Assembly (NCBI GenBank): GCA_001244265.2
Contig: LN717261.1
Span: forward strand, 3,363,591-3,427,590
DNA: 64,000 bases
Direction: 5' to 3'
From: Microbotryum violaceum
Lineage: Eukaryota
Below are positions 994 to 64,000 of the stretch, in pieces. Position 1 is the stretch's first letter, and each line of letters starts with the position of its first letter. The translations under genes and the position numbers were made by a program. The notes below the pieces were generated by a model that ran no database searches, had not been told where the DNA came from, and worked only from the letters and a program-made list of their open reading frames with translations.

Positions 994-3900
994 TCAGGAG
1001 AAAAAGTACAAACTACTCCTAATCTTGGTCAGATCAAAGTCGCCTTTCTCCGGTACGGGAGGTAATACATCCGCGACGTAAACGAACTTGGAATTCGCGT
1101 CTCGAGAAGTGGGCACTTTCCACATCTCCGCGGCTTCGACCGCTTCAGGGGTGGGTGGGGCATCCAAATCCGCGTCGTCTTCGACGGCGAGCAAAGGGAT
1201 TGTCTGTGAGCTGGTTTTGAGAGGATTCTTCGTGCTCGTCGCAGTGGCTGTGTTGGAGATGGGAATCGAATCGTGTTGGGCGAAAAGAGGAAGGGTCGCA
1301 GGACCATCTTCGGCTTCGAGTTCGGTTATCACGTCCGTAGGTTCAGAGGTCGCTTCGGCTTCGGTTTCGTTCTCGGGCGACCTGATTTGGATCGAGCCGG
1401 TGTGGTCGGGTTCGGCGTAGCGTAGTCCTCGGGGTACGCGTTTGACGGGAATGACGTGCCCTTTGTAACGCTCCAAGAACTAGAAACAAAAGCAAATAAT
1501 CGCATCAGTACTCCAACCTTGACTGCAAACCCCAATAAAGCCTTGAAAACCATCACTCACCTCCTGCCTCAATTTGCCCAAAATGTCTTGCGAATGTAAT
1601 TCGATAAAAGCCTCCCTCAACATGACCGACATCTCATCGACCGAACAAGCATGCGTCCAATACGAATCGTGTACCGAAGCAAACGCAATCTTGTCCTTAC
1701 TCGCCAACGCCGTCATCATCATATGCGTGGCGTCGAGGGAGTGAATGAAGTTGGGGGGAAGGCGGTGGCTTGGGCTCGAGAATCGACTTCGGCTGGGATC
1801 GCCGGGTCAGAAATGAAGACGCTTTGCAAAGCCGTGGTGACTTGTCTCTTACGATCCTTACGATAAGGTTGAACGACGGGGAGGCCCAAAGGAGTCGTCC
1901 AAACTACACTAGTCATCAATTCCTTCGGGATCCGACTCGGCATATCGACGTCCCTGCTCGGATCAGCCATTCCCGCCGCTTGCATCGCCGCCAACGCCTT
2001 GGAAGGTCTTCCCCTCTTCGGCAGTGCATCCGGTTGTAAAGCGGCGTTCAATCTCCCCGGTGGAATCGATTTCGAAATCAACCTCGCCGAACGACTCAAC
2101 CATTCTTGAATCGCCGTAGCGCCCTTGAACACGTCCGAAATCGACGAAAGTACCAACTTGCCCAAGTAAACCGAACAAGCGTACAAATGTTCGGCCGAAA
2201 TATCGCCACGATCCTTGAGTTGTCGTTCGATTTGGTTCTTGGCTCCGATAAAGGTGACGCCGTAAACGGTGGTCATGACCGTTTGTTTGACCACCTTGCG
2301 ACTGACTTTACCCTGCAAAATTAGCGCTTGTTCCAGTCCGTCCCCGGCGTCGCGATTGATAATTTCGTTGACCACGTTGGCGACGGCGGAGTAAACGTCC
2401 GCCGGTCGATCCCCACCGTCCAAATTGACCTGTTCAGCGCCCTTGAGATCTCCCCCCAACGCGGCGTAATGTTGCAACCCATTGCAGGTCCCGTCCTGAT
2501 GAATCGGCAATGCGCAATCATATTCCTGCGGGTTCTTCGATCTCAAAGCCTTCGACAACTCCATACACGTCGCCAAGCATTGCCAACGATCCTCAGCGTT
2601 CAACCACCACCTCTTCCCCTCCAAAGGTCGATCAGCTGAATCGTAAATCTGCTCCAAATGCTCCATCGCGAACGCCTCCCTTTCATCGAACGAAGCCTTG
2701 TCGTAGCCGAACGTATTCGCCAAATGAATCTTGAGCCACCTCAAACCCCTTTCACCCAAAGGTTTAGCTTCCCCAAACATCAACAACCCTCGACACATAT
2801 CATCACCGATATGCGACAAATTAGGTGGGATCGGGTAAGCCCTCCCACGAAAATCTAAGTTATGGGGAAAGTAAAACTTTTCACCTAAAAAGGCACGAGC
2901 GATTTCGAGTTTGTAGTTGATATCGCAACGATTCGAATGAGCCGCTCGACGATCTTGTAGAACTTTTTTGATTCGTCTTCGGTAGGTGTCCAATGCACGA
3001 AGATCGGTTTCTAGTCCTTCGGGTTTCTCCACGTCGATGGGTAGGCTCAACGTTCCTGCGGCGGGAATGTCCCCCATCGCTTCACCCGTGTTCCATACGG
3101 CCGAAACGACGTCAAAGATAGGTCGATTGATGACCCAGGATACGCTACCGAGCACATCGAGACCGGTGAAAACGTCGTCGAGGTTATCGGCCTCCGAGGC
3201 TTGTTTGAGGTATTGCACTTGTTCGTCCGAGTCTTTGGTCCGCATCATTTGAGCTGTAAAAATTAACCCCCAAACTCCCCGTCAGTTTCAAGCTCCTAAA
3301 AACAACAAAGCCATTGACGTTGCTTGAGCTCACTCGAATGAATCAAATAAGCACCCGAATTATAACTCAACCAAGGCTTGGGTTTGACGACCATAGGCAA
3401 GAACCTCGGATGCAAAGTGATCCTCAATGGATCGGTATCGATCCTACTCGCGATCGCCGGATTGACCTTGATAACGCCTACCCTCTTCCCCCTGACGTAC
3501 TGATACGAATGTGAGAAAGCAGGTTGAACCTCGGTAACGATCTTACCCGTGATGGGATGTTTGGCCGTCCTTTCGACTTGAGCAACTTGCATCAACGTCG
3601 TGATCAACAAGGACCCGACTTTGGCATGAATCGAACGTGTCCATGCCGGACGCCAGGACGTATCCCCACTTTTTTCCCTTTTCGCCAATTCCCTCCTCCA
3701 GAAAATCTCGATCGCTCGAGTAGGTTGCGCTTCAATCACTTCGCCTTGCGAGTTCAACTTGCCATAAGTTTGGATCTGTTCGAGTTCTTGTAAAAAGTGT
3801 TTGCGCGGAAAGGATTGTTGGAGCACTTGAGCATGATACTCATGTTCGATCGCTCGACCGACTTCAAGAATCCCTCTTGCAGCCTTCATCCCTTCCGCTA

Positions 3901-5584
3901 CGCCGGCGTTTCCACAATGACGTAGTAATTCGACGATCGTAATGAGCGCCATCTTGTCCGTCGGTACGAGTTTCAAGAAAGGATCGATATCCGGGTCCTT
4001 GTTCCACGTATTACTGAACCCACCGAACGAAGTCGTATCCGACCGGATTGCCGCCACCTTTTTCCCCTTCTTTGACCGATTCGCCTGGGTCGTACTTCGT
4101 CCCGAATAAAATTGTTCATTCAAAGCGGCTTCCAAAGCTTTGGTCCATTCGAACATGACGCCTTGTAACCAATTCGATTGGAGTCCTCGTTCTTTATCCT
4201 TACCGACTTTGGCCAGTTGTTCCCTTTCGTGGATGTAGAGTTGTCGAGCTGCGTCGTAGGACGATTCTTCGAGTAACTGTTGACGATTCGCAGCGGAGAC
4301 GACACCATCCGGCACAGCCAAAGTCAATAAATTCGTTCGAAGCGTTTTGAGCGAAACTGAAACGTCGGGTGCTCCCCCTGATTCAGCAGAAGTTCTAGTC
4401 GTAGGTTCGATCTCGACCGGTTCGTTAAAAGTCGTGGTCGTGGTCGAGTGGGTCGAATTCGAACTCGTATGACGTTGAGATAACTTGGTTTCAATCTTTT
4501 TGAATTCGCTCCTCAATTCTTCAATCTCTTCCTCCCAAGCCTTCCATTCCTCCTGACCTTTACCCGTTTCAACGAGAGCGTTCAAAACTTGTAAAGGTGA
4601 AACTTTTCCCAAATAACTCGGTAATTCGACGTGCCAAATCGGATCGTTCAAAATATCCTTCAAACGTAATTGATGTTGTTCGACTTGATCCAATAAAGTG
4701 GTTAAAGGTTTGAGCCAAGGTTGGTTCTTACGCGTCGTTAAAGAGATTTCTTCCTTCGCTTTGGGTGTGGAAAGTGGTGAAGGATTGTAGATTGAGGGTC
4801 CGGAGGCAACGAGTCCTTTGAACATGACGGCTAGGACGGATTCGTCGATGGCGAGGTTCGTTTGAGTTGATTGATCCCACCATAGAGGGCGTTGTAAAGA
4901 GTCAAAGTAGGACCATGCTTTGACGACGTAATCGGACCTGACTAGATTGGACAAAGGTGTGGAAGGTGTTTCGGAAGGGGTAGGTACGAGAGCTTTGATG
5001 AGTGCGCTTGAGAGGTAGGCGCGAAGAAAGTCGGCGTGAACTCGAGGAGGTAAGAGAGTTGTGAGTGAATCGTTGCGATGGGTCAAGATTCTTCGGGCGA
5101 CTTCTTCGGCGCGGGTTAGGTCTCCCGAGGCGAGACAGGCGTTGAGAATCGCGAGTTGCTCCTGCGATTGAGTGGAAGTTGTCCAGTTTGCTGGGGTAGG
5201 ATGGGTCGAGGAGGAGGAGGAGGAGGAGGCGGAAGAGGCGGAAGAGGAGGAAGCGGTAGGAGCAAACTTGTCTGTTCGTTCGACATCGGCGGGTAAGGGG
5301 GGTGCCAAGGGGGGGAGTGGAGGGACAGAGTAGAGAGGATGGCCGGGCCTTTGGAAAAAGGCTTGGTTCGAGATCGAACTCGACGGTGGCGGTGGCGGTG
5401 GCGGTGGTGGGTGAGAGGAAGGGGAGGAAGAAGCGGGATCGACCGAGGCCGAAGGAGGCGCGAACCGGGTCGTGCTCGACGAAGCGAAACGGACGAGAAC
5501 CCGTGGCGAAGGAGAGCTCGAGCTCAAGGCGATCCTCGCAGCCGTGCGTAGCCTAGCCAACCGTCGATGTGACGACAAAAGCAT
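994..5584 (-). CDS. RPO41: Mitochondrial T7-like DNA-directed RNA polymerase
   Basis: Arg/Ser-rich presequence MLLSSHRRLARLR; motifs LDFRGRAYP, HQDGTCNGLQHYAAL, RKVVKQTVMTTVYGVT, SVHDSYWTHA; C-terminal YFFS. Introns 3333-3254 and 1560-1480. One apparent frameshift at ~1755 (FPPN). Confidence 0.97.
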
Positions 5585-6299
5585 GATCGTCGTCGTCTGT
5601 GGGAGAGAGTGCGCCGGGGTCAATCAGTCTACTGCACAGCGAGTAGATTCTCGATCACGGCGAATGCGAGCGAATATGTTGACCCAGATCATTCCAGACA
5701 GGCTCGATCGAGACTGAAACGTGGCGGTGCATTGTCAATGCAGGCGGGGTATGAGCAGTGACCGTCTCTGCAAAGGTGTGTGCGTAACCGGTGGGTGGCG
5801 GCCCATGCATGCAGTGTGGCCAGTGTGGCCAGTGTCGCCACCGTCGATCCGCTGACGACGACCGCTCCCGGGAAGGGGTGTAGAGCAGCAACATTCCTGA
5901 TCGATGCAGCTGACCTACCTAGTCGTACGCGTGCCTACTCACGATCGTCTCTTGTGCTAGAACGACGTGCGTTTTCCCAAACGGCCGAGGAAGGGAGGTG
6001 CGATCACTCCAAACAAGTCGGCTCCTTTCTCGTCGAGAGCTCAAAGTCGAGCAAAGTTGAGGAAACGATTGCGAAGCGCGCGAACCGAGTCAGATTCCGC
6101 TCGGCCGCCCAACCCGCTCCCGCTCCCGCTCCCGCTCCAAAAAAGGCAAGCGCTAATACTAATTGCAATAATTGGCTCATCGGTGACGCGCTCGATCTAA
6201 TGCGAAATTCGTTTCAACAGATCAACTTCGCACCCACTCGACCCAAGGCGGGCTGCTGCCCTCCTCTTTTTTTCTTCTTCTTCAGAAGTTGATCCTTCC

Positions 6300-43826: not shown

Positions 43827-45436
43827 ATGATAACGTACTACATGCTCGAAAATTCCCGTGCCATTCGTGTTGAATGGTCGCTTCGAGAACTGGGATTGGA
43901 GCATGAGACCAAGTGAGTTGAGTGGGGGTCCGGCCGATGCTCGACTCGTTCGAGCGGAGCTGGTCGGGCGGTGGTTGGTAAAGTGTTTTGGTGGCTGAGA
44001 TTGGATTCTTTGAGAGGTCAGATGCTATAAAAGGGTCAATGGGAAGAAAGCTGTAAGTGAACACCATATCAACTACTAAGCTTACCAAGTAGTATCAGGG
44101 CGAGCTCTCTTGAAATGAAGGCAGCACCGGTGGTCGGATGTGGGGGTTCTTTCGAGCGAACCCCCCCCCCCGCTCATCTTCATTGGTCTCGCACATGAAC
44201 TCATTCTTTGGGAAGTTGATTATGCATAGCCACCAGAGATGAAAGAAGAATTCGGTACGAAGGTGGGAAAGTCTCCGGCTTTGAGGGATGGAGATCTTTT
44301 GATCGTCGAGTCGTCGGCGATTTTAACGTACGTCACTACTTGCGGTGCCGATGGATCGGAAGTCGGTTTCGGTCGGTCTAATCATAATGCGCAACAAGAC
44401 TAGGATGGAGCATTCGATATTGAATCGAGGGTTTTGTGTGGAATTTTTGCAGGTACCTCGCGGAAAAATACGACGAGAGCGGTCGACTTTTGCCAGGCTT
44501 GGGCAGGGACAGGGAGCAGGACAGAGTCGATACTTTCGCTTGGATCGGGTTTGCCGAAGTGTGTGGAACTTTGCTGCAGGTACCTCGCGGAAAACTACGA
44601 CGAGAGCGGTCGACTTTTTCCAGGCTTGGGCAGGGACAGGGAGCAGGACAGAGTCGATACTTTCGCTTGGATCGGGTTTGCCGAAGTGTGTGGAACTTTG
44701 CTGCAGGTACCTCGCGGAAAACTACGACGAGAGCGGTCGACTTTTTCCAGGCTTGGGCAGGGTGCAGGACCGAGTTGATACTTTCGCTTGGGTCGGGTTT
44801 GCCGAAGGCGCTCTAAGTAATTATAAGTTTGCGATTTCGCCCACACGGGGATTGCTCCTTCCTACACAGTACACGAATACGACTGATGGATCAATGTGGG
44901 GTTGTTGAATGCAGTGGCCCATGCTCTACCGATCACTTACGCGGCGTGGTTCATCCCCGACGAGTATGAAAAGGCCCATCAAGGTTTTCATGATAGCCTT
45001 AGTCAGTTTCCCAATCTGCGTCGACAGAATTAGCGGAAAACTCGATTGAGTTAGACCAAATATGACTTGCTCCCTTCAGAACCCAACGTTATTAACGATC
45101 TCAATTACCTCGAAGCCGAACTTGAGAAGAAGGTCGAACGCTTCAGGAAGAAGAATGGTCAAGGTGCTTTCTTGGTCGGACAAGATTTGACGATCGCGGA
45201 TATTCAGGTCGCGTTGCCCATCGAGTGAGTCGAGGTGAAGTTTTTACGGGTGTTCATCTGGGCTGAGGTTGGTGATCAAACGTCTTAGGTACATCTTTAC
45301 GCACCCGACGATTTCCAAGGAATTGAAAGACGAGATCCGAGGTTATACGCAGATCAAGGTTTGGCTGCGGGGTTTGGAAGCGAGGCCCGCTTACAAGGAG
45401 GCAACCAAGGTCGCGGAATGTCTTTGTTTTGCCTGA
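43827..45436 (+). CDS. Glutathione S-transferase (Gtt1-like) with a tandemly triplicated exon segment
   Basis: MITYYMLENSRAIRVEWSLRELGL, GKSPALRDGDLLIVESSAILTYLAEKYD, FAEGALMAHALP, FLVGQDLTIADI, WLRGLEARPAYK. Confidence 0.85.
44432..44806 (+). repeat. 127-bp tandem repeat x3 (intron 3' end plus most of a GST exon)
   Basis: gcag|GTACCTCGCGGAAAA at 44453, 44580 and 44707. Confidence 0.95.
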
Positions 45437-47099: not shown

Positions 47100-48401
47100 T
47101 CAACCGTTAATGGTCACGCGCGTCGCAAGCAAGAATTATCTGACCTCTTCTCTGTGAGCTGATGCACCTGAGTGCAGATGCTGCCTTGCAAATGGCTTGT
47201 TCGCGGTTTCCTCGCTTCTCTTATCTCATCAGTGTACCGGCACTGAGGAGGTATCCCTAGTGCAAGCGGATGGAGCTCGAGCACATGCACAAGACAACTC
47301 CCAGGCGCTCCCTCGTGAACGCGAAGGAGCCGATCGTGTCGAACGTTTTGGTCAACTTTTGGCGATTTATGAGTTCCGATAGGGAGAGCAGGTGCGCGCA
47401 TTCGCACCTGATTGTGCCAGGTGGACCTACGACCCTCACACGTTCCTATTGCTTCACAGAACTACCTACTTGGGAAGGTACGGTCGCTTGGTTTGAGCCA
47501 CTTGCAACCCGTCTACGACGCGATCGAACAGGCCCCGATTGCCAAGCCGACGCCAAAGCGGCAAAAGCGGAAGGCTGTGTCTCCTGTAGGAGCGCAAAAG
47601 CATCAGAACTTGTGCTTCACTCAAGTTCAACATGCTTCAGGAGCGGTCGAGATTGTGGATTTGCGGTGCATCCTGGCCTCAGCTGGTCGCATACATCGGA
47701 GGGTTGGTCGGGAGGAGTCTCGGCAGTACATCTTTGACCACATGGATGATGAAGCTCGGCCTAATTTTATGAACCTGGAATAATACACTGGCTTCCTTCA
47801 CTCGTCTGTTTCATCCACTGCCAGAGGCAAGAGTGTTACAGAGAAGTTCTAGACATCCGTGGGTGGTATTGCGGTGGTAATAAACCCCAAACCCGGTAAC
47901 AACTACGCTGCACGTACGGAAACCCGGAGGCCGGGGCAAGCCATCCAAGCAGATATTACCCATGTCAAAGTTAATACCCAGCTGGGGGTATTACCGCGCG
48001 CCTGGGTATTACCCCGTTCAGCTGGGTATTAACCCCGTTCAGCTGGGTATTAATCCCGTTCAACTGGGTATTAACCCCGTTCAGCTGGGTATTAACCCCC
48101 AGGTGGGTATTACCCCTCAACTGGTTATTACCCGCAAGCTGGGTATTACCCAGAGAGATGAGTAATACCCGGCTGGGGGTTATTACCGCGCGCCCGGGTA
48201 TTCCCCGTCGGCTGGGTATTACCCAGGGAGATGAGTAATACCCGTCAGAGAGTCAATGCCCGGCGTGGGGTTAAAACCGCGCGTCTGGGTATTACCCGTC
48301 GGCTGGGTATTACCCAGGCGCGCTCGGGACAATACCCAGGTGAGACCTGGGTAATACCCTTCAGAATGGGTGGTATTACCGGAATTAACCGACCCTCAGT
48401 G
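47100..48401 (+). mobile_element. Degenerate CACTA/EnSpm-like transposon 3' end
   Basis: Broken frames FGQLLAIYEF...VEIVDLRCILASAGRIHRR...QYIFDH resembling basidiomycete CACTA transposase C-termini; subterminal repeat array; ends in CAGTG (CACTG on the minus strand). Confidence 0.55.
47955..48385. repeat. Array of CTGGGTATTA(A)CCC motifs in both orientations, including a 21-bp tandem unit
   Basis: cagctgggtattaaccccgtt-type unit about four times, plus many gggtattaccc / gtaataccc copies. Confidence 0.9.
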
Positions 48402-49291
48402 GCAGCGCGACTGCTCCCGATGGGTTACCTGAAGTACTTGGACTTGTAATTGCTTCCGCAGAAATTATATGAAAGCACTTTACGTCGCTTTCTGCCCTAT
48501 ACACCGTTTCGGCATCAAGTGTAGTGACTATGACTTAGTGCAGGCCTGACCCGGGGCAACGTGGCTCCCGCCGGGAACAATGTTTCTACCGGCTCAGGAT
48601 GCCCGATCCGATAGGGTTTTATCGCCGCTGCGCGGCGCGATTAAGATCGTCCCTTCTTTAAGTTGTCTGCCCGAGGTGCAGTCAGGTCCCGGTGGGTACC
48701 AAGGTAGATGCACCGGGAATTCGGAAGGTTTTAGGTTCAGGCTAGAGAGGTGGGTACCGGGCAACGCTGCACTCAGCGCTGGGCACTCCCGAGTCCCAAC
48801 CCTCTCGACCCTTGGTTACTGACTAGACTCGAGGGCACGGCGCGTGACCACGACCGGTTCGTCGGTCGGGTCAGGGATGGGCTATTATTAGGTCCCGCTC
48901 GGCAACTCATGGGCTTGCTTGTGACTGACCTACCCTCACTTCCCGACATCCGCCTCTGAAACCTTAATGGTTAAAGGAGGTGGTTGTAGGACGGGCTTTT
49001 GAATCCACTTCCTTCCTTTCTCTCTTCCACACCACCCCTACCCCCCAGTCTCCTCCACATCCCGAACAAGTCTTGCCCCTCTCTAACTCTCAACCGACCC
49101 CTAAAGCCAGGTCACCGACTTACCGTCTGGTCCTCTCCATTAGTCTCCACTCGCCTCGTCGCGCTCTTTTATAGCTTCCTACCCTCGTTGTGAGTCTTTC
49201 TTCCAGAACAAATCCGAGTCCCTTTGCTCGTGCAAGACCACTGACTCGGACCTGCCCGTTCCTGCCACGCTATCACCTCACTGCCTGCGTC

Positions 49292-50233
49292 ATGGCCAAC
49301 GGCCCTCCCTCCTCGATGCGAGTCCAAAAGTCAAGATGTCTTCAGAGCTTCGCCAAGTCGTTAACAGCCTTTCTTTACTTGAAATCCGCGCTGGCGTTGC
49401 CACAATTGTTATCTATCTCGGGTTGGTCGCGTTCACAATCATCTTCGCGCGATAAGCGATCCGGCGACGGCTCGTCGAGCTTCTCGACGGGCTCGCAGGG
49501 GCTGGTCAAGCACGACAACTGCAACCCGACCTGTCCTTGTGGGACCCGACTGGATTCGGTTGCAATGCCCACCTGTACCTGGAATTGTGTCTGGTGGTCA
49601 AATTCCGTCATCAACAACTTGGGGGCGCTCGTTGATGCGATCGCCACTGTCATCGTCGGCATCCTCGGGTACACCGCGACGAGGGCGACGACGAGTCACT
49701 TCAGCACGACGGGCAAGCGAGACAACGTCACCTTGCATGCGTTCAGTGCGGCGGTCGATGACATCTTTGGCACCAAGGACCGCAAGCGCGACGGAAGTGA
49801 TCTTCAAACGGTCGACTACACCATATTGTTCGCCAACGGCACCGTCGACGGCATTTACACCGAGTTCAACGTGACGGCCGGTCAAGCTGCCGCTTACATC
49901 GGCGATTCCTACGCTGCAAGTTGGGTCGCTTCGGACTCGGCCCTCGAAAAGCGTACCGACACGCTCACCAATGCCAAAGTCATTTACCACAACGCAAAAG
50001 TGGGTGGCGATGTCCAAGTCAGGTCGTTCACTTATTCCGAGAGGCAACAGGCGGGCAACACGATCGCGGGCCGCTTCTCCGATATCTGTCAGTACGATGG
50101 CAGGGCAATGTGCGACTGCCTGCGCTCCGGGGAAGGCAACGAGTTTGCTGGTGCTTTGACGGTCGAGGGTCAGGCCAACAACAATGGCAAATACCAAGCA
50201 ATGAACTGCAACTGCGATACCCGTTCCTGGTAG
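49292..50233 (+). CDS. Intronless secreted preproprotein with killer-toxin-like alpha/gamma/beta architecture
   Basis: Hydrophobic signal ending SALA; Kex2-type sites DKR, GKR, RKR, LEKR; Cys-rich amphipathic alpha part, glycosylation-sequon spacer, Cys-rich beta part. Start could be 49292 or 49316. Confidence 0.7.
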   Translation: MANGPPSSMRVQKSRCLQSFAKSLTAFLYLKSALALPQLLSISGWSRSQSSSRDKRSGDGSSSFSTGSQGLVKHDNCNPTCPCGTRLDSVAMPTCTWNCVWWSNSVINNLGALVDAIATVIVGILGYTATRATTSHFSTTGKRDNVTLHAFSAAVDDIFGTKDRKRDGSDLQTVDYTILFANGTVDGIYTEFNVTAGQAAAYIGDSYAASWVASDSALEKRTDTLTNAKVIYHNAKVGGDVQVRSFTYSERQQAGNTIAGRFSDICQYDGRAMCDCLRSGEGNEFAGALTVEGQANNNGKYQAMNCNCDTRSW

Positions 50234-50325
50234 ACCGTCGTCCCTTACCATACCCGACATCAAAATTCCTATCAAGTACGGCTACTGTAATCCAAGTTTC
50301 CAAAACCCGGTTCAGATCAATTTTC

Positions 50326-50590
50326 TGCTGAAACCATCAAAAAAGTTCCCCCAACAACATCCCGAACCTCTTGTACTGTTCACTCTCCCCTTACCTGACT
50401 GGTCTGGGTCTTGTGGATGCACGAGAATTCTTAACCCTAGTAGCCTATCGACACTGCGCTTCGTTAGTGTTTGGCATGTTTTGGTCCATTTAATGCATAG
50501 CGATCGACGAAGGCCATTGAAAGGGCCTTTAGTAAACATGATACTGTGAAGGTAGACACGGGTTGTTCAACACTCCCCGTTTCCTCTCCT
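50326..50590 (-). mobile_element. Possible Copia-type PPT plus LTR remnant
   Basis: Minus strand GAGGAGAGGAAACGGGGAG directly followed by TGTTG at 50572; the far end is uncertain. Confidence 0.35.
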
Positions 50591-51064
50591 CTTTGCAATG
50601 TTCCACAGTCGGATCGATCCGTCGAGTGAAAACGAGAGGACGCTTCAGCCCGGCCCTTGCCGAGACAAACTTTGTGTGGCCCGTCCTGGTCCTGAGCTCT
50701 TTGCCGGCCAGGGTGATGAGAATCACTGTTAGAGGTTCTGGGAGTTCTTTAGCAGCCTATGGCAGGACGACCTCCCCTGCGTTTTCCTGACAACAGGCCT
50801 CACGTTCCGCCTCCGGCCGGAAGGAGATCGGCATATTTCGCCATCGTAGACACTAGAGTCGGTACTACCAACCATTCTTCAAACCGCTGAGATGTGGGCC
50901 GATTTTCCTATAGATTTATGGCCTTTCTAAATGCTGAAATCACAGGGGCCTAGGGATTGTTGCACTGCACGAGCCGTTCGGAAATCTGAGCAAAATCTGA
51001 ACAGGTTCGGCATAAGTTAATCTTAGTGCTATTCTGGGAAAATTTGGGCTCACCTTTTGGTGGT

Positions 51065-52670
51065 TCTATACATAGTCTACCCCCCCTTCCCCTTTATTAC
51101 CTTAACTAGTTACCCTGACTATTACCCTTTACTACCTCTTTATATATATAAAAGGTCGATCCGCGACCCATGTACCTAAAATCGCTGTTTTTGACTGTGT
51201 TGCGGCCCTCTGGGCCGCCTATAGTGAATGTACCAGTACAGTATTGCGTCTGCCGCACCTGCCTGTGATTTTGGCGTCCCGACCAGAAGTTCAGTTTGCA
51301 TAGGATTTAATGTATAGCAAGCGCGTGGGTTTGCATGACACTTCTTCTACAGAGCTCAGGCGTGGTCTCGCTGTCGTTGACGCGCGGACGCGGGCGCCGC
51401 TACGCTGCGCGATGCCCCGTCGATCACGTGACGTATTTCTGGCACCCCGATACCGGTTTTAGGGGCTCAACAACAACATGAGGTTTCAGCCGCTGTGAAT
51501 ACTCCTCTGATGACTAGGCAGTCAAGGACCCCGTATGTTTCGGATATTTCGACGCCTTTACCATCGACTCGGCGCACTCTCGGCGCACTCTCGGCGACCT
51601 AATTCCTGCCGTCAATCAGCGCCCAACCTTTGCCAAAACATGGCTCATCTGCCCGGCCGAGGCCACCGACATTCAACTTGGACCCGAGGGCGCAGACAGT
51701 CGCATACAAGGATCCACTTTGACCAAGCTCGATTCTACGTTGCGTACCGGCAATTGCTTGGTGAGGGAATTTGCATCGGCCAAAGCTCGCGCAGGTTAGG
51801 CCAAAGAGTGGGTCCTGCGCCTCTGCCTACCAGCTGGCCGAGATCGACGCACCCACAACCTTCCTACGTCGAGCACCGAAATGGGGATGCTTATCTGCGA
51901 TTCCGGGGAGATCGTGGACGCAAGACCTTATTCTCCAGGTGCACGGTGATCGATGTCCCGATGGTCGGCCCAAGTACCCAATCGTTAGCTCGCTCCATCC
52001 GTCGGCGATGCCTCTTCGTTATCCACTACTCTTCCCCGCAGAGGAAGATAGCTTCCACCTCAACATTCCTCTTTGCGCGTTCAACCAAATTGGGCCACTC
52101 TTTGCCAAAAGACCGCGACGAGGAGGAAGGGGACGCAGAGAATGGTAATGGTGAGCGTAAGCCCCTTCGGCTCTTTCTCGGATGTTCCATTCTGTTAAGG
52201 CGCACGCACAGACTGACATTGAACTTTTGACCACCTAGGGCGAAGCTCAAATAAAGGGGATCGAGGTGGCGAGTCTCGCGTTCACAATTATTTGCGTACT
52301 ACTTGCACAAACGCGACGAGTACTTCTCAATCCCGCATTGCACCCAACGTGCCTTCCTAGCGTTCGTGATGACGGATACTCCCAGGTCGAGACCGATCGA
52401 CTCAACTTACCTCCAGTTGGATCAAAAAAACCTCCGCCTCACCACAAGCCAAGGCATCATCAGCTTGACCCCGAATCAAGTTGGATGTTCGGTGATTTTG
52501 GGCTCAACGTTCAAAAATAGACCGCGCGAGAGCACGCAGCGTTACCAAGATGCGATGGCGTGCGTCGTAAAACATGGGATGCCTTCGCTGTTCATCATGG
52601 TGACGTGCAACCCCGAATGGCCTGAAATCAAGGCTGCACTGGGACCGAACGACCAAGCATGCAACCGAGA
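51065..52670 (+). mobile_element. Degenerate Helitron (Rep N-terminal region), copy A
   Basis: PLRYPLLFP..E..FH.NIPL and VILGSTFKNRPRESTQRYQDAMACVVKHGMPSLFIMVTCNPEWPEI (Helitron_like_N); frameshifted; 5' boundary approximate. Confidence 0.85.
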
Positions 52671-55600
52671 CTACTATTTGAACGACGATGACTTCGATCG
52701 ATCATCGCTGCTCACCAACATGACGGTTGCCGAGCTCCTCGCCTTCGATGTCGCTCCCGCCGACGCGTCTCTTCACATCGAGTTGTCCAAAGACGAGCCC
52801 ACCCAGTATTCGACCTTAACCTACCCGACTCTTCAGACCAGAGACGCGTTTCTCGCTACCGATGCTCTGATCAATGCACGCAAGAAAGGATATCGATCTT
52901 TGGCCGTCGGGTCGACGTGTTTGCCGCTCGGCGCCGATCGGCTATGGTCAGAGTACGACCGAGCAAAAGACGTTCAAAGCTGGGCGCTGCGAGCTCAACG
53001 ATGGATGGACAAATTATCGTTATCAACGAAATTGACCGCAGACGTATCGCTGTCGCACGTCGCATACTGAACGGACTGCAATGGCAAGAGCAAGACGGGC
53101 TTCTACCATTGCCTCTTCTTGCAAGTGGAACGAGTTTGGTTTGTCTCCTGAGATTCTTAAGTCAGTACACCAATCCTTCAGCTGGCCACTCGTATTCATC
53201 TCGTATCTGAGGCAACTTGCTTATTCGCGTCTCTACCCAGGTCATGATTGGCTCGGTGAAGCCGCGGTGAACTTGTCAATTGAAAGCGTCCTTCGAGCTG
53301 GACGAGTGCAGAATCCCGATTTCGAAACAACGTATGGACTTATACCCTCCACCGTCATCTTCTGGGTAATGGCTCGCCCTCCCGACTCGGATCCTCATTC
53401 GATCTTCAAAGCCTGCTTTTTCGGCCCGCCAAACCAGTATCGGAATCTCATCGAGCTAGGCGATTGCATGCGCAACACGCCGACCTCAAAGTCAATCTGG
53501 TTTCTACCCTCTGCTCCGACAGCCATTGGGTCCTGGCCCGCATCAACATGCATAAGCGGACGTGGTCTGTGATCAACTCACTCTCCGCCACTCCGATCAC
53601 CGCGGCTACTCGGACGGCCGTCCTTACGCTATTCAAATTTCTGAAGCTGGACATCAAGAACTAATTCCCTCATACTCCTAAGGCGGAACAACAGGAAGAC
53701 AGCTACTCGTGCCGGCCGGCTACGATCAATGCAGTGGAGACGGAGGTGCTTGGGATTGGGTCATTCAACGCAGCGCGCGCTCACATGTCACTGCCTCGTC
53801 AATTCTGTCGTTTATCCTCTCTGGTTGGTGCTGTCGAGGATCCTAAAGAGATCGAATCCATCGCTGCCACGGGCGCAAAATCAAAGGCAAAGTCTGGGAG
53901 GGGATCCGCTGCCGGGACACTGAGCAGCAAGAGCACGTCGGCAGAGTCCGGCAAAGCAGCGACAATCAAGCCAACAAATCAACGAGTCGCATCATCCTCA
54001 AAGAACCCGCCAACTTCTCGACTCCAAACGAACTTCACCAAAGCATCGAAGCCGACGAAAGCTCGAGAGCTCACCCCGAGGAGCATACGACGTGGGCTCG
54101 CGACCATCCGCCTCTTTTCAGGAGGCTTACCGTGTGAAGAATGCGCAAAGCTCCCTAAGAATTCATCCTGTCGAGCAGCTCTTCGGCGTCAATATGCTGC
54201 TGGCGCAACTCGCAAATACACCAACAAGAAATATGTCGCGGGCGATACACTTCTCTCAGCCATCTACCGGCGACATCATGGACTAGAAGAGATCCTGGAT
54301 GACAAGGGTCAAGGGACCGTGTGTCTACGATTAGCGCAAGGTGTGGCCTCAGGAGAATTTGGCGGAGCGAACATCTTGGAGGGATTGGTGAAAGCGGCTA
54401 CGGTCAAGCACGATCGGATGGTCCAGGGCAAATCAATGCGAGGCTTTGTGCGGTCCGAACTGCTGCGTGACTTCGAGCAAGCCATGGCGCTGGCGTCTCC
54501 GATGGCTCTGAGAGTGCTGCAGGCTACAATCGGCGCATCCACAAGCCGAAAACTGCAGTGAGTACCGTCATTCTTTCGTTCTAATAATTCAACCTCATAC
54601 TGAATGATCGAGGTGCTTGCAAAATGGACCGAGCGACATCAGGCAGGATGCGCCTCGGCCTCGACAAGTCCGACATGGATCGTGTCTGCGCGAAACTCGA
54701 AGCAGACGGCCTAACGTTCAATTTACACGTAGACGACACGAACTGTCGATCCAGGATGCGAACCACTCCATACTACTCAGAAGACCTCAGTTTAGAGCGC
54801 GAACTACGTATGAAGGGCATATTCCGCCACGAGCTGATCGGATCAATTGGTCCGCCGCGCATCTACGAAACTTCGGGTGAACTCCCTGATATGTTCAGCG
54901 GACCTGACCCCCCGGTTGCTGGAACCAAAGTGAGTGGCAATGATTCTTTTAAGTTTGTACTTCATTTCCACGAGGCTTTATCATGTGTCGCCTCTTCAAT
55001 CAGATCCGAGCTTACATGATAGCAACGAACGATGTTGGCTCCCCAGCACAGGTGTTTGCCGCTTTTGTGATCGGCGAAACTACGAACGCGGAGGACGCGA
55101 CCAAACAGTTACATTCAGTGAAACAAGAATCAATAAAACGTCGCGTCGCACACCTTCTGGTATCCATCTCCGCAGATGGTGCGGCAAGCGAGGGTGTGCT
55201 GCAACGTAATGTTGCCGTCCTTCTGCGCGATCAGGGTGGCGCTGTTGCTCAAACCGGATCAAGGAACGTGTCATCACACACCCTCCCCTCCCCAGATCCG
55301 GACGGAGTGTTTCCTGAGATCACTATATCGACCGTCAACGTCGCGGAAACGCCGATAGTCTTCTGTCGGACGAAAAACACCTCGCCAAATGTCTGAGGAA
55401 CGCTATCGACTCTGGAGCAAGATTGCTGTTCGGCGGTCTCGGATGCGTTGCCTACCAGGATATGCTCTCCATCCTGGGCTGACTGGAGTCGCGTCGTACT
55501 CTTTCTCGTCGTGATGTGGTCGGGCGTGATCGTCAAGGCGACAATGCAGCACATCGGGCATTCTCCAAGGCGACGCTCGAACTCGTAGCCGAACTCGCTG

Positions 55601-58448: not shown

Positions 58449-60407
58449 TCACAGTTCGGTGCAATGGAAGTCGAGCTGTGAACGAGGCGAATATGAAGAC
58501 TTCGTCAGGATGATGAACGCACTATCAGCTTGAATCGGGAGACCCCATCTGCCCAAACTGACCTGCTTCTCGGAGTCGACGTTGTGGCAGTTGTACACGG
58601 GAGGAGTACTGGGCGTAGGTAAGCTCAGGTGAGTCCCGATGGCAGTGATACCAGTGCACTCCTTGGAGCAATCGAGCAGGGCGACCACATCCTTGTACTT
58701 TCCACTGGAGGTTCCGGTGACGTTGATGTAGTGCACATCCGAGACCGTCATCTTCGAGGGGAACTTGGTGCAGTACTCATTAGAGTTCATATAGCAAGAG
58801 GTGATCAAAAGAGGCTCGTCCACATTTTTGTTCACGAAGTTTTGGAACGTGATGTTCTTGACGTAGCCCGATCCGCCACCGGCGTCTTTGGCGGTGCCGT
58901 TACGATCGGGCCAAGCCTGAGGTTCATGGACACACAAGAATAGTGAGTGGGTCAGGTGGAGGCGAACAGATGATTGTCCCGCGGGTAAGGCTAACCTTGA
59001 TACGAGCACCAGCTTGGGCATTAGACATGGAGATGTCATGGATGTAGACATTCTCGACCTGATGAATATGTCCAACCCATTCAATGCACGACTCCCACTG
59101 GATTCGCTAGGCGAGCGATCGACCCCACCAGGCTGACTCACGATATCGTAGGAGTCGACGTACTGGCCGAGAGAGCCAACCGAGATGCCATGGGATCCAT
59201 TGCAGTTCACGCGACCGACCTCGACATTGGTCGAGTTGGGCTTCAGAGAAACACAGTCGTCGGCGTTGTTGACGTTGAAGTCCAGCAGAGTCACGTCATC
59301 CGAGTTGTATGTGTCTACTCCGTCAGTGTTGTAGGGTAGGGAGTCGGACTTCGACACGGCGTCGATGTTGATATTGGACATCGTTACTTGCTTCGAGTGA
59401 GTGATGAAGATGTTCCAGAACGGCCCATTCAGAAAGTTGATGTACTCGACCCTGACGTTCTTGGCGTTGCCGATCGTCAACAGGATCGGTCGGGCGTACT
59501 CGGTGCTCTCGATACCATGAAGGTTACCCGCCTTCTTGTCCTTGACAAACTGGTCCCACCATTTCTGGATAAAGCGGAGCAGGGTCAGCTCAGGGTTCTT
59601 CGGTCGACGTTGCTTAGAAAGATCTTCCTTACTTGACCATTGCCGTTGAAAGTGGATTGCTTCTCCGCTTTCGAGGTCTTCGAGGTCGGGCTACCGTGGA
59701 GCCAGATCTTCTCTCCTTGGAGCTGCGCAAGCCGATGATCAATGAGATTCGGGAGCTGTCAGCCTGAGAACGGTCACCGGCACAAAGAGCAGCCGTCAGC
59801 GGAGGGATGGAGGTGGACTCACGAAAAAGAAGGTGGTCACATTTTGGTAGTAGAGCTCGTAGGAGCCATCTCCATGGGTATCCGTCGTAGGTTTTGACCA
59901 GTAAGCAATGTCGTCGGAATAGGTGACTGGCGACAAGACCATGTTCAGGACCGAGCCCATTGCGATTTCGGAAATGTGGAGGAACTTACGTGTTCCAGTC
60001 AACTCAATCTCGACATTATAGAGCATAGGCGTGTAGAGGAGACTCTTGACGAGGTAATTGCCATTCAAGACAATCTGCCGAAGCGGAGGCGGATACGTGT
60101 CAGCATCCCCTGCGCTCGGTCCCGCACGCTCTCATGCGAGAGGTCCGAGGCGGCTTCAGAGGCACGGTCTGTGCGCACTGACCTTCGCGTTTTTCTGGCA
60201 CTTCGTGAAGGCGTCCATAATTTTGGGTGTCGAGTCCTGCCCGACACCGCTCTCATCGACAATGCAGGTCGTCGTGCCCGAGGAGGCCTGTAATACACCG
60301 CTAGCTCTGTGATGGCGATAGCGATGGCTTGAATGGCCTGAGCTGTGCTTGTGCGCTCCCGCAAGGGCGGCGAGGGAAAGAGGCAAGGCTGCCAAGATGA
60401 TCTTCAT
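58449..60407 (-). CDS. Secreted GH28 (exo-)polygalacturonase, multi-exon
   Basis: Signal MKIILAALPLSLAALAGA; catalytic motifs NTDG, ADDCVSLK, GSHGISVGSLG, ARIK. Confidence 0.93.
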
Positions 60408-61334
60408 GGTGTAGGGGCACGGCAGGAGGAAGTGGGGAGGAAGTGGACGAGAGTTGAGGTTAAAAGGACGGACGAGAGAGAGGTAGAGAGCATAGAGGGG
60501 AGTGAATCCCTTGCAGTTCGGTCTTGATCCCGGCGCGACGTCTGTGTCAGGATCTGTCGCGTCCATCTTAAAGGAGGCTCAGTCGTTGGCGATCGACTGG
60601 GCTCAGGAGCTTGTAGGCCCCGCCTAGCGCCTGACCGCCGACCAGCAACGCCGAACGGGGAGCAGCCACGATTCCACGACTCCACGAGATTGACATGAGA
60701 CCACGACCGTTTCACTACCCTATAGACTCCGAGACGCCGAGATGCCAGGACATTCAATGCGTGGAATGATGACACGTTCTTACCCGAGAGACGGGTAGGT
60801 CTTTGCCCAAGGTCCCCTCCATTCGCTGCAAAGTGTCTGGGCATGTCTCAGCCTTACTGTGACCGCTTTTATTGGCTAGACTAGAAAGGGCTATTTGTTC
60901 CGACAGAGACAAATTAAATTGATTCGGTTTGTTAGAGGTCTTAGGTACGGACCTGCCGATACTGATAGCCGCTAGCCTCATAGGAGTGCTTTCAGCCGGT
61001 ACATGTCAGGGGCGAACGACGCGACACGTATTCTCCGTCATAGTGAATGGCACTGCTTACTTCTCTTGAGATCGAAAAGGAGGGATGGGCAGTGACTTCC
61101 GAGGAAGAGTGAGTGTCCAACCTTTTTTCTAGACTGCTCCCTCTCCATCAGCGGCTAATGCGGATGGCGCTGATACTCGGGACTTTTCGCTCGCTTTGTT
61201 TTACCAGGGGGTAAACGTCGCACTTTCCCCTATGATGAAAAATGTGCCCCGAAGCCGGTCGCAGTGTGAAGACTTCGGTGGCGACACCTCCCTAGGACCT
61301 GACCCGCTTCGGTGCCGCGATGACGATCAAAGGC

Positions 61335-61731
61335 ATCCAGAGCACGTAGATCGGCAAGATGAACGAGTAGATTGGGTAGGCGAGCTGCGCGTTTATATTG
61401 GGGGCACCGTCAGCCTCAAATGCCGGACCCGGCAGACACCGTAGGCACTCACGATGTAGATCACGAGCCAGCCAATGAACTGCCACTGGCGCTTGAAAAG
61501 GAAGATGACCGCCTGGAGACCGTAAGTCTGTGTGTGTAGAACAGCTCGTCAGTAAAACCGACAAGTTATCGAGTGCCCGGATTTGCCCACTTACTGCACC
61601 GACCATCGCCAACGCGATGACGGGAACTTGGGTGTCTCCGAGTAATACTTCGACGATGAGGTAGATCAAGTAGACGAACGTCGCGGGAAGAATGAGCGTT
61701 CCAAAAAGATCGATCATGACGAAGAAGCGGA
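61335..61731 (-). pseudogene. Internal fragment of a class V/VII-type chitin synthase gene with two introns
   Basis: RFFVMIDLFGTLILPATFVYLIYLI...AMVGAV / [24 protein letters not shown] / LAYPIYSFILPIY; the rest of the gene is absent. Confidence 0.85.
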
Positions 61732-61732
61732 T

Positions 61733-62282
61733 GTGATCGCGTGCGCCAAGGCCAAGCATCATGTCGCCAACGAGCAAGAGCACTACCGAAGAGGGTCAGG
61801 TGCTATTATATCATTTACTAATACCGATGATCGAGTCATGCATGAAGTATACGTGAGTCTGCTTCACTGCAAGTCTCTCGAGCCTTCCAAATAGTCAAAG
61901 CTGACCGGTGTCCTTTTCTGATTCATCGATGTGCCCTCAGAACCACCCTTTTTCCGAATCAATCCGGGCCGGTGTAGGATCGATCATGTGCTCGTATAAC
62001 CGTATCAATCAGACGCACGCTTGCGAAAACTCGTACCTGATGAACAAGCTCGCTAAGCAAGACCTGGCGTTCCATGGCTTCGTCGTCTCGGATTGGTCGC
62101 CACAGCCGAGCGGCGTCAGCAGTGCGCTTGCGGGTCTGGACATGTCGATGCCAGGTCAGTAGATATCTTTCGTGGGTAACAAAAGCTTCTTATACCTACT
62201 GTAGACCTATCTCTTCTGCAGGCTTCCGATCCTACACCGAGGGGTTGGACAACCAGCAGAATCCCGCCAAATCCTACTATCC
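61733..62282 (+). pseudogene. Internal fragment of a GH3 beta-glucosidase gene with two introns
   Basis: VIACAK..HHVANEQEHYR...DDRVMHEVY / HPFSESIRAGVGSIMCSYNRIN..ACEN...GFVVSDW...LAGLDMSMPG; truncated at both ends. Confidence 0.88.
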
Positions 62283-62430: not shown

Positions 62431-64000
62431 TCACAAACAGCCTGCCCGTTGCTTGTTGCCAAAACGGTCGTCGTCGCAGAGTCGGTTCAACTTGGCTTCA
62501 AACGCTCGTGCAATGAGTTCTGGTCGGTCGCATGCTTGGTCGTTCGGTCCCAGTGCAGCCTTGATTTCAAGCCATTCGGGGTTGCACGTCACCATGATGA
62601 ACAGCGAAGGCATCCCATGTTTTACGACGCACGCCATCGCATCTTGGTAACGCTGCGTGCTCTCGCGCGGTCTATTTTTGAACGTTGAGCCCAAAATCAC
62701 CGAACATCCAACTTGATTCGGGGTCAAGCTGATGATGCCTTGGCTTGTGGTGAGGCGGAGGTTTTTTTGATCCAACTGGAGGTAAGTTGAGTCGATCGGT
62801 CTCGACCTGGGAGTATCCGTCATCACGAACGCTAGGAAGGCACGTTGGGTGCAATGCGGGATTGAGAAGTACTCGTCGCGTTTGTGCAAGTAGTACGCAA
62901 ATAATTGTGAACGCGAGACTCGCCACCTCGATCCCCTTTATTTGAGCTTCGCCCTAGGTGGTCAAAAGTTCAATGTCAGTCTGTGCGTGCGCCTTAACAG
63001 AATGGAACATCCGAGAAAGAGCCGAAGGGGCTTACGCTCACCATTACCATTCTCTGCGTCCCCTTCCTCCTCGTCGCGGTCTTTTGGCAAAGAGTGGCCC
63101 AATTTGGTTGAACGCGCAAAGAGGAATGTTGAGGTGGAAGCTATCTTCCTCTGCGGGGAAGAGTAGTGGATAACGAAGAGGCATCGCCGACGGATGGAGC
63201 GAGCTAACGATTGGGTACTTGGGCCGACCATCGGGACATCGATCACCGTGCACCTGGAGAATAAGGTCTTGCGTCCACGATCTCCCCGGAATCGCAGATA
63301 AGCATCCCCATTTCGGTGCTCGACGTAGGAAGGTTGTGGGTGCGTCGATCTCGGCCAGCTGGTAGGCAGAGGCGCAGGACCCACTCTTTGGCCTAACCTG
63401 CGCGAGCTTTGGCCGATGCAAATTCCCTCACCAAGCGATTGCCGGTACGCAACGTAGAATCGAGCTTGGTCAAAGTGGATCCTTGTATGCGACTGTCTGC
63501 GCCCTCGGGTCCAAGTTGAATGTCGGTGGCCTCGGCCGGGCAGATGAGCCATGTTTTGGCAAAGGTTGGGCGCTGATTGACGGCAGGAATTAGGTCGCCG
63601 AGAGTGCGCCGAGAGTGCGCCGAGTCGATGGTAAAGGCGTCGAAATATCCGAAACATACGGGGTCCTTGACTGCCTAGTCATCAGAGGAGTATTCACAGC
63701 GGCTGAAACCTCATGTTGTTGTTGAGCCCCTAAAACCGGTATCGGGGTGCCAGAAATACGTCACGTGATCGACGGGGCATCGCGCAGCGTAGCGGCGCCC
63801 GCGTCCGCGCGTCAACGACAGCGAGACCACGCCTGAGCTCTGTAGAAGAAGTGTCATGCAAACCCACGCGCTTGCTATACATCAACTCATACTCAAACTG
63901 TTCAATAGTTGCGTACCCCGCCAAAAATCAACAAAAAATGTCTTCGGGCTGTAGCTCGACTTTTATGGTGCCGAAAATGCGGAAAGGGTCGTACATGACT
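62431..64000 (-). mobile_element. Degenerate Helitron, copy B (inverted, nearly identical to copy A)
   Basis: ~62525-63882 is the reverse complement of ~51310-52667; the frame continues DRPELIARAFEAKL. Confidence 0.88.

Follow-up and report, generated by a model that had tools for sequence, protein, structure and literature searches.

A candidate killer-preprotoxin family in Microbotryum and a genomic copy whose probable 5′ intron takes out its start codons

We analysed 64,000 nucleotides of Microbotryum violaceum contig LN717261.1 (assembly GCA_001244265.2, positions 3,363,591 to 3,427,590 of the forward strand; hereafter the window), in which a first-pass annotation had described a 313-codon open reading frame (ORF) as an intact, intronless killer-preprotoxin gene among decayed neighbours. 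Judged by its sequence, the ORF belongs to a small unannotated fungal family made up of Microbotryum proteins and a few unnamed relatives. That this family consists of secreted precursors of the K1/SMKT type has, in our judgement, somewhat more for it than against it. This killer-preprotoxin reading is supported in part, by the layout of the protein, the pattern of conservation, the distribution of sequons and the ranking of fold matches, and not by sequence homology or activity; for the full-length members we infer secretion, Kex2-type cleavage and toxicity. The window copy itself may not yield a secreted toxin, and its own output is uncertain: a probable 5′ intron holds both of its upstream start codons (Table 1).

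The annotated gene is present as an ATG-to-stop frame of 313 amino acids, with every motif that had been described in place. Because three named Microbotryum proteins match the ORF at E values of 1e-138 to 1e-145 (74–83% identity), a chance frame is excluded and the ORF represents a real gene. A HMMER search run exhaustively against 1.84 billion representatives returned 10 proteins at E≤1e-3, including the product recorded for the window locus (P0002). Another of the 10, P0010, is a 2684-residue repeat protein with a bacterial-looking layout and was discarded as spurious. With the additions from word-index searches the family comprises 11 relatives in the protein collections, of which those that carry names are three M. 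intermedium proteins (BQ2448_7515, BQ2448_612 and BQ2448_610), a protein of M. saponariae and a partial one labelled Zymoseptoria brevis. P0001, P0003 and P0004 are full-length Microbotryum relatives and P0005 is a full-length distant member (44% identity); P0006, P0007 and P0009 form a clade of partial models, and P0008/P0014 are listed apart from it as family members. Three short proteins (P0011, P0012 and P0013) have a strong N-terminal membrane anchor (19-residue hydropathy 2.35–2.97) followed by the alpha motif only, P0012 carrying additional hydrophobic stretches. M. intermedium has three copies, two of full length and one truncated; P0013 is BQ2448_610, which is alone in its length class and whose locus tag lies two numbers from that of the full-length BQ2448_612. 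P0007 is the sole member with a name from outside Microbotryum; its 2.1-kb contig, labelled Zymoseptoria brevis, belongs to an ascomycete assembly, which could reflect either a patchy spread of the family or a stray contig of another fungus.

Other collections added no relatives. A Pfam scan of the ORF found no family, and a profile search with the A2 alignment passed 7 of 6431 candidates, all of them members already known. None of the 226 pattern matches obtained from JGI metagenome contigs with A1, an alignment of six sequences, was a relative, and the best scores in the ESM Atlas (0.83–0.86) fell on unnamed Ascomycota clusters, below our threshold for a lead. A viral origin had also been suggested for the gene; the pattern and tblastn scan of IMG/VR gave this no backing, as none of its 23 pattern matches was a relative.

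The ORF is laid out as a leader, an alpha part, a gamma spacer and a beta part, with the basic pairs K55-R56, K142-R143 and K220-R221 (ending at 49459, 49720 and 49954) and a central basic site, R164-K165-R166, within the spacer. This four-part arrangement with basic junctions recurs in the relatives, distant ones included. Among the eight sequences covering each junction, the alpha/gamma junction is dibasic in six; the gamma/beta junction is dibasic in five and monobasic in two. Across A1 no change is seen at R221, D223, L225 or T226, giving the motif R221-x-D223-x-L225-T226, and the central basic pair of gamma is found in the four Microbotryum sequences and P0005. Identity to the distant members is 60–67% in the alpha hairpin, 42–60% in the remainder of alpha (residues 101–143, helix included) and 54% in beta, against 22–29% in gamma; within Microbotryum gamma is conserved like the remainder, and the contrast is a long-term one. 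The basic pairs are placed at the borders of the conserved and variable parts. The window protein shows 8 private changes over 276 columns, compared with 14–34 in the other three Microbotryum proteins, and because its body is the most consensus-like of the four we conclude that it was under constraint until recently. GC at third codon positions (GC3) is 0.74 in the alpha–gamma–beta body (49460–50230) versus 0.54–0.58 in three housekeeping ORFs of the window.

Cysteines lie at residues 77, 81, 83, 95 and 99 (within 57–143) and at 266, 274, 276, 306 and 308 (within 222–313), odd counts that had been taken to suggest an inter-chain disulfide. The conserved set is even, with four cysteines in alpha (CX3C, 13 residues, CX3C) and four in beta (CxC…CxC): C83 occurs in the window alone, and P0005 and P0014 have no C266. 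Since the conserved set is 4 + 4, the odd counts provide no argument for an inter-chain bridge. The spacer (residues 144–221) is devoid of cysteine and carries the sequons NVT145, NGT182 and NVT193. All eight sequences have between one and five sequons in gamma and none in beta; in shuffling tests this gave P values of 0.003–0.06 in the Microbotryum, P0005 and P0006 lineages and was not significant in P0007 and P0014. The conserved cysteines flank the hydrophobic helix of alpha (residues 110–127; 15-residue Kyte–Doolittle maximum 2.27) on both sides. Together, the sequon pattern and the position of the cysteines favour a precursor that would lie wholly in the secretory lumen, against a membrane span with a cytosolic tail.

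The second of two AlphaFold models reached a pLDDT of 64.9 and a pTM of 0.70. Its secondary structure runs helix, helix, four strands, strand, helix, two strands, of which the first element is the hydrophobic helix (ORF residues 110–131, residues 37–58 of the model, with pLDDT block means of 53–88), the next helix and the four strands derive from gamma, and the strand, long helix and two strands derive from beta. Both junction KR pairs are predicted within or at the edge of floppy low-confidence loops, the alpha/gamma pair at the C-terminal edge of its loop. When BFVD, a library of viral structures, was searched with Foldseek, the K1L toxin of Saccharomyces paradoxus virus M1L ranked first (E 2.7e-3, probability 0.72, TM-score 0.28) and the K45 preprotoxin second (E 4e-2, probability 0.57, TM-score 0.34), the third match having a probability of 0.07. 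We treat this ranking of predicted structures as a lead with good odds and marginal scores. A Protein Data Bank (PDB) search with an aligner that reads every representative placed 15 pilins (3.8–4.8) among the 50 matches listed, including 4d40 and 4noa, two entries that models of the K1 superfamily also matched according to a paper on killer toxins. A complex prediction for alpha (58–141) with beta (222–313), in which alignments were unused, scored 0.02 and speaks neither for nor against binding.

Table 1. Features of the candidate preprotoxin locus, in window coordinates.
Feature	Coordinates	Strand	Remarks
Exon 1 (as far as the X11 contig reaches), 5′ untranslated	49008..49189	+	no ATG
Probable intron, 141 nt, GTGAGT...AAAAG	49190..49330	+	holds ATG 49292 and ATG 49316 (M9)
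Genomic ORF, 313 codons, ATG to stop	49292..50233	+	stop codon at 50231-50233
Frame-0 leader (delta-like)	49316..49459	+	weakly hydrophobic core; Ser-rich stretch; DKR specific to the window
Exon 2 (as far as the X11 contig reaches)	49331..50624	+	0 other letters, no gaps
Out-of-frame ORF, 39 codons, strong membrane-like core (19-aa hydropathy 2.41)	49336..49455	+	first ATG of the joined form; stop 49453-49455
CX3C-X13-CX3C motif (C77, C81, C95, C99) opening the alpha part	49520..49588	+	conserved; C83 in the window only
222-aa product from M92, first frame-0 ATG of the joined form	49565..50233	+	identical to the recorded locus product P0002
Hydrophobic central helix of alpha	49619..49672	+	residues 110-127; G123, Y127, A129 invariant in A1
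Alpha/gamma junction, KR in TGKR/D	49715..49720	+	edge of low-confidence loop 59-69, second model
Gamma spacer	49721..49948	+	no Cys, three sequons, central RKR at 49781-49789
Gamma/beta junction, KR in LEKR/TDTL	49949..49954	+	inside low-confidence loop 134-150, second model
Beta part, 92 aa, best conserved region	49955..50230	+	CxC...CxC, VEGQANNNGKYQ

The window stretch or part of it occurs in 12 public sequencing runs, none of them on record as RNA, and a copy of the gene was found in contigs of several. Contigs from four of the 12 runs were compared with the window; run X11 holds the exact sequence and run X2 a diverged copy. A single X11 contig of 1476 nt matches both exons of Table 1 with no other letters and no gaps, its shorter side measuring 182 letters, and skips the 141 nt between them, which have GT..AG ends. 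The X2 copy, ~92–96% alike, shows a joint from the same position 49189 to 49303; the window reads GG at 49301–49302. Because the two joints have the same left edge at a consensus donor, we consider it very probable that they arose by splicing, or in copies made from spliced RNA; alternatively, the 141-nt gap may be a DNA deletion allele. The window copy has presumably lost the usual acceptor (ending at 49302 in the X2 copy) and uses a downstream AG instead. X11 cover is absent at 49190–49330 and, but for a 47-nt repeat, outside 49008–50624; this absence was not taken as evidence.

The gene had been called intronless and undamaged. Neither description holds for the form seen in the X11 contig, in which the 141-nt skip removes both upstream ATGs, including the start in the models of all three Microbotryum relatives (ATG 49316, M9); because both are taken out, a signal-bearing precursor cannot come from the joined form. 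The joined form would instead give rise to a 39-residue membrane-like peptide in the other frame and/or the 222-residue product from M92, which has no leader and retains one half of the cysteine motif. Translated, the 39-codon frame is similar to the N-terminal anchor found in P0013 (47% over residues 32–70 of that protein). GC contents by codon position of the leader in frame 0 (0.41/0.55/0.57) fit this other frame better, unlike those of the remaining ORF. The leader differences listed between the window and X2 (n=8) are synonymous in three of eight cases in frame 0 and in four of eight in the other frame, too few to decide. The 5′ end of the window copy has either been recently disabled or is regulated through splice-site choice or intron retention.

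That the full precursor of 313 or 305 residues is still made here, from unspliced or differently spliced transcripts, and that the window thus carries an intact toxin gene, we regard as unlikely. The skipped segment is a multiple of three, frame 0 remains open through it from 49175 (a stop at 49172–49174 closes the frame upstream), and ATG 49292 is preceded by G at −3 and followed by G at +4; an intact gene would also suit the consensus-like protein body, and rare variants are dropped by contigs. Against these points, the sole bridging contig, in the run with the exact sequence, shows the skip; the product recorded for the locus is the M92 form; the window reads GG exactly where the joint of the X2 copy ends; and the basic pair preceding alpha has been lost.

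For the leader, a signal and a pro-peptide ending in DKR had been proposed. In frame 0 the best 10-residue hydropathy window is 1.74, a modest core that does not confirm the claimed signal, compared with 1.5–2.06 in P0001, P0003 and P0005 and 0.66 in P0004. The DKR is present at 49459 and is specific to the window, P0001 reading DER and P0003 DKQ. A conserved KR directly before alpha, 18 residues past the DKR and present in four of six sequences, has become KH in the window through R74H; just one other private window change falls at a deeply conserved column. In the X2 copy H74R restores this KR and C83 is absent, and there are an R221C exchange and gamma indels summing to +4 nt, so that, provided the contig is correct, this copy is unable to code for the complete protein. 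Among the body changes listed from 49483 on, 15 of 22 alter the protein; the stretch has 19 more differences beyond those listed. Because the X2 copy carries the gamma indels and R221C, the family also decays. An X2 contig over 49625–49727 departs just past the alpha/gamma junction and continues, by eye, like the leader at 49356–49385; it could represent a rearranged or tandem copy.

With regard to the first-pass proposal of a killer preprotoxin, architecture, sequon pattern and fold speak for it, and sequence homology does not. A number of results count against it. At the sequence level there is no tie to a known toxin: no PDB sequence matched below E 0.5, and Pfam searches over 12 members returned only weak matches, namely NCD3G in seven (best E 0.0076) and four other families, each in a single member, including DUF5807 (E 0.021). 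On the structural side, the first whole-length AlphaFold model was poor (pLDDT 52), Foldseek found no PDB match at E≤1e-3 for either model, and the BFVD matches lie above the 1e-3 mark with low TM-scores (0.28 and 0.34) and an rmsd of 10–11 Å. The alignments are shallow (11–12 sequences). As for the genes themselves, the leader is a weak signal, and that of P0004 contains none worth the name; the conserved KR before alpha is lost in the window copy through R74H; the X2 copy is frame-broken in gamma and carries R221C; and the only full-length joined form of the window copy is without a start, in a run (X11) not on record as RNA.

A different topology would turn the family into membrane proteins, with the cysteine motif facing outward, the helix as a true span, the C-terminal 190 residues in the cytosol, CxC…CxC binding metal and the KR pairs incidental. 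Such an arrangement, which we hold to be quite unlikely, is compatible with a helix long and hydrophobic enough for a span (15-residue hydropathy 2.27) and followed by basic residues, with the strong anchor ahead of the cysteine motif in P0011, P0012 and P0013 (2.35–2.97), with the extra hydrophobic stretches of P0012, and with the M92 start of the joined form, which lies 18 residues before the helix and would make it a signal anchor; the fold matches in the PDB are, moreover, generic. It is at odds with the enrichment of sequons in gamma across independent lineages and their absence from beta, with basic pairs kept exactly at the conserved/variable borders, and with the model, in which the helix is predicted to pack with a sheet and the whole scores as one domain (pTM 0.70). 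The best matches in the viral library are preprotoxins whose central helix is reported to be likewise predicted as membrane-spanning and yet buried.

We find it distinctly improbable that a killer-toxin-like fold serves plant infection here as an effector, or acts on the plant microbiota, as has been proposed for KP4- and KP6-like proteins of other plant pathogens, and is thus no weapon against fungi of its own kind. Nothing specific speaks against this; the main text of Microbotryum secretome papers, supplementary lists aside, contains neither ‘killer’ nor ‘toxin’, and the hydrophobic central helix would be typical of membrane-attacking toxins and not of known apoplastic effectors. Highly improbable in our view is that the 5′ end acts as a switch, the acceptor of the relatives keeping the frame-0 start and giving a secreted precursor, and that of the window copy, 28 nt downstream, giving an anchor peptide and a leaderless 222-residue form, such that one locus makes either a toxin or a membrane-bound product for self-protection; this would be reminiscent of the immunity borne by the K1 precursor and of poison/antidote pairs whose members arise through alternative 5′ ends. 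A Kex2-processed repeat protein (KEP), which would have near-identical peptide repeats between KR sites, finds no backing: at the DNA level the ORF has no direct repeat (minimum length 60), and its parts differ in composition and conservation.

Under the killer-preprotoxin reading, the full-length precursor would enter the endoplasmic reticulum with the alpha part folded as a disulfide-stapled CX3C…CX3C element followed by a buried hydrophobic helix, around which gamma and beta would wrap. A Kex2-type protease of the Golgi would then cut out the leader and gamma, releasing an alpha/beta pair joined mainly without covalent links, whose alpha helix would attack the membranes of competing fungi.

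The left part of the window contains ordinary genes, among them those for an M3 peptidase, for a protein like diphthamide synthase and for an RNA polymerase of the phage type. The polymerase (mitochondrial-like; 1722–5623, minus strand) is split into ORFs at 1719–3281 and 3296–5623, presumably separated by a short intron or a frame change. Upstream of the candidate gene lie a tandem array of a 127-nt unit in 3 copies (44448–44828) and a degenerate array of 18-nt period that translates as a repeated short peptide (48073–48318). The right part holds Helitron-like fragments in an inverted pair, tandem repeats, and partial glycoside hydrolase family 28 (GH28) and chitin-synthase matches. The arms of the pair (51292–52668 and 62524–63900) measure 1377 nt, are 99% complementary and 9855 nt apart, and cover ORFs for a Helitron helicase-like N-terminal domain at 52255–53067 (plus strand), with its copy at 62431–62937 (minus strand). 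The GH28 match (58452–59690, minus strand) spans profile positions 85–198 of 324, and the chitin-synthase match (61295–61795, minus strand) positions 395–444 of 527. The claim that the neighbours are decayed was checked in part: on the downstream side, the Helitron-like N-terminal fragments and the partial matches to GH28 and chitin synthase may be remnants of broken genes or exons of live ones. A 47-nt dispersed short repeat (50660–50706) stands beside the end of the gene contig and recurs with 7 differences in another high-depth X11 contig; both sides of this element show loose ends in X2 and X11.

Basidiomycete yeasts have long been described as showing killer activity (‘mycocins’). Full-text literature searches, and the texts of the killer-toxin structure paper and of Microbotryum secretome papers, gave no killer toxin gene tied to Microbotryum or the Pucciniomycotina, supplementary homolog and secretome lists aside. 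If the family is a true K1-type branch, the architecture would extend from the satellites and chromosomes of budding yeasts to a basidiomycete plant parasite. It would also be a candidate weapon in the competition among anther-smut strains that co-infect a plant, and a source of new alpha domains for antifungal work. The probable 5′ intron illustrates a more general point, namely that an apparently undamaged ORF in genomic DNA can fail to give a secreted protein once its start is removed.

Among known systems, the SMKT toxin of Millerozyma farinosa (PDB 1kvd) and the Gnk2-type fold gave no family among the Pfam hmmscan matches at E≤10 for the 12 members, and SMKT gave no match in the PDB sequence searches. 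KP4 and KP6, from viruses of Ustilago maydis and with homologs in Zymoseptoria, differ from the family in having no such hydrophobic central helix and no long glycosylated gamma; neither was matched in Pfam or PDB sequence searches, and KP6 was not among the listed matches. A closer parallel is found in the KKT copies of budding yeasts, which PMC7888664 describes as multi-copy genes of unstable regions, many of them decayed or truncated beside intact ones, with a sporadic taxonomic spread. The truncated copy of M. intermedium, the frame-broken X2 copy and the repeat-rich setting resemble that picture; unlike the KKT copies, the gene lies in transposon-rich and, as far as the window shows, not in subtelomeric surroundings.

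The K1 superfamily (K1, K1L/KKT, K2, K45 and K74) offers the most detailed comparison, for which we draw on PMC12637454/PMC13211469 and bioRxiv 10.1101/2024.10.11.617966. These describe delta, alpha, gamma and beta parts bounded by mono- or dibasic Kex sites (PMC12637454/PMC13211469), and a core formed by the central hydrophobic helix of alpha and a sheet of 4–7 strands, drawn mostly from the sequence that follows this helix; beta contributes a second helix and is built as strand, helix and two strands. A core rmsd of 4.5 Å is reported among members of the superfamily. The family differs in its shorter alpha part (68–87 residues, against a reported mean of 113), which opens with CX3C…CX3C and has a single hydrophobic helix. 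It also differs in its host, a basidiomycete of the Pucciniomycotina, the K1 family proper being reported mostly from the Saccharomycotina. A chromosomal location and a probable 5′ intron set the gene apart further, and no sequence similarity to the K1 superfamily could be shown. AlphaFold confidence, low here, is reported there to be equally low for K1-superfamily toxins. The likeness extends from the size (~300–340 residues) and the order of leader, alpha, gamma and beta to the basic junctions in loops predicted to be exposed and the hydrophobic central helix of alpha. R221-x-D223-x-L225-T226 resembles the LAKRxDxP consensus given for K1-like toxins, and the basic pair in mid-gamma has a reported counterpart in K1 and in 5 of 13 of its homologs. 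Finally, the order of secondary-structure elements in the second model matches the core described for the superfamily, including the strand, helix and two strands of beta.

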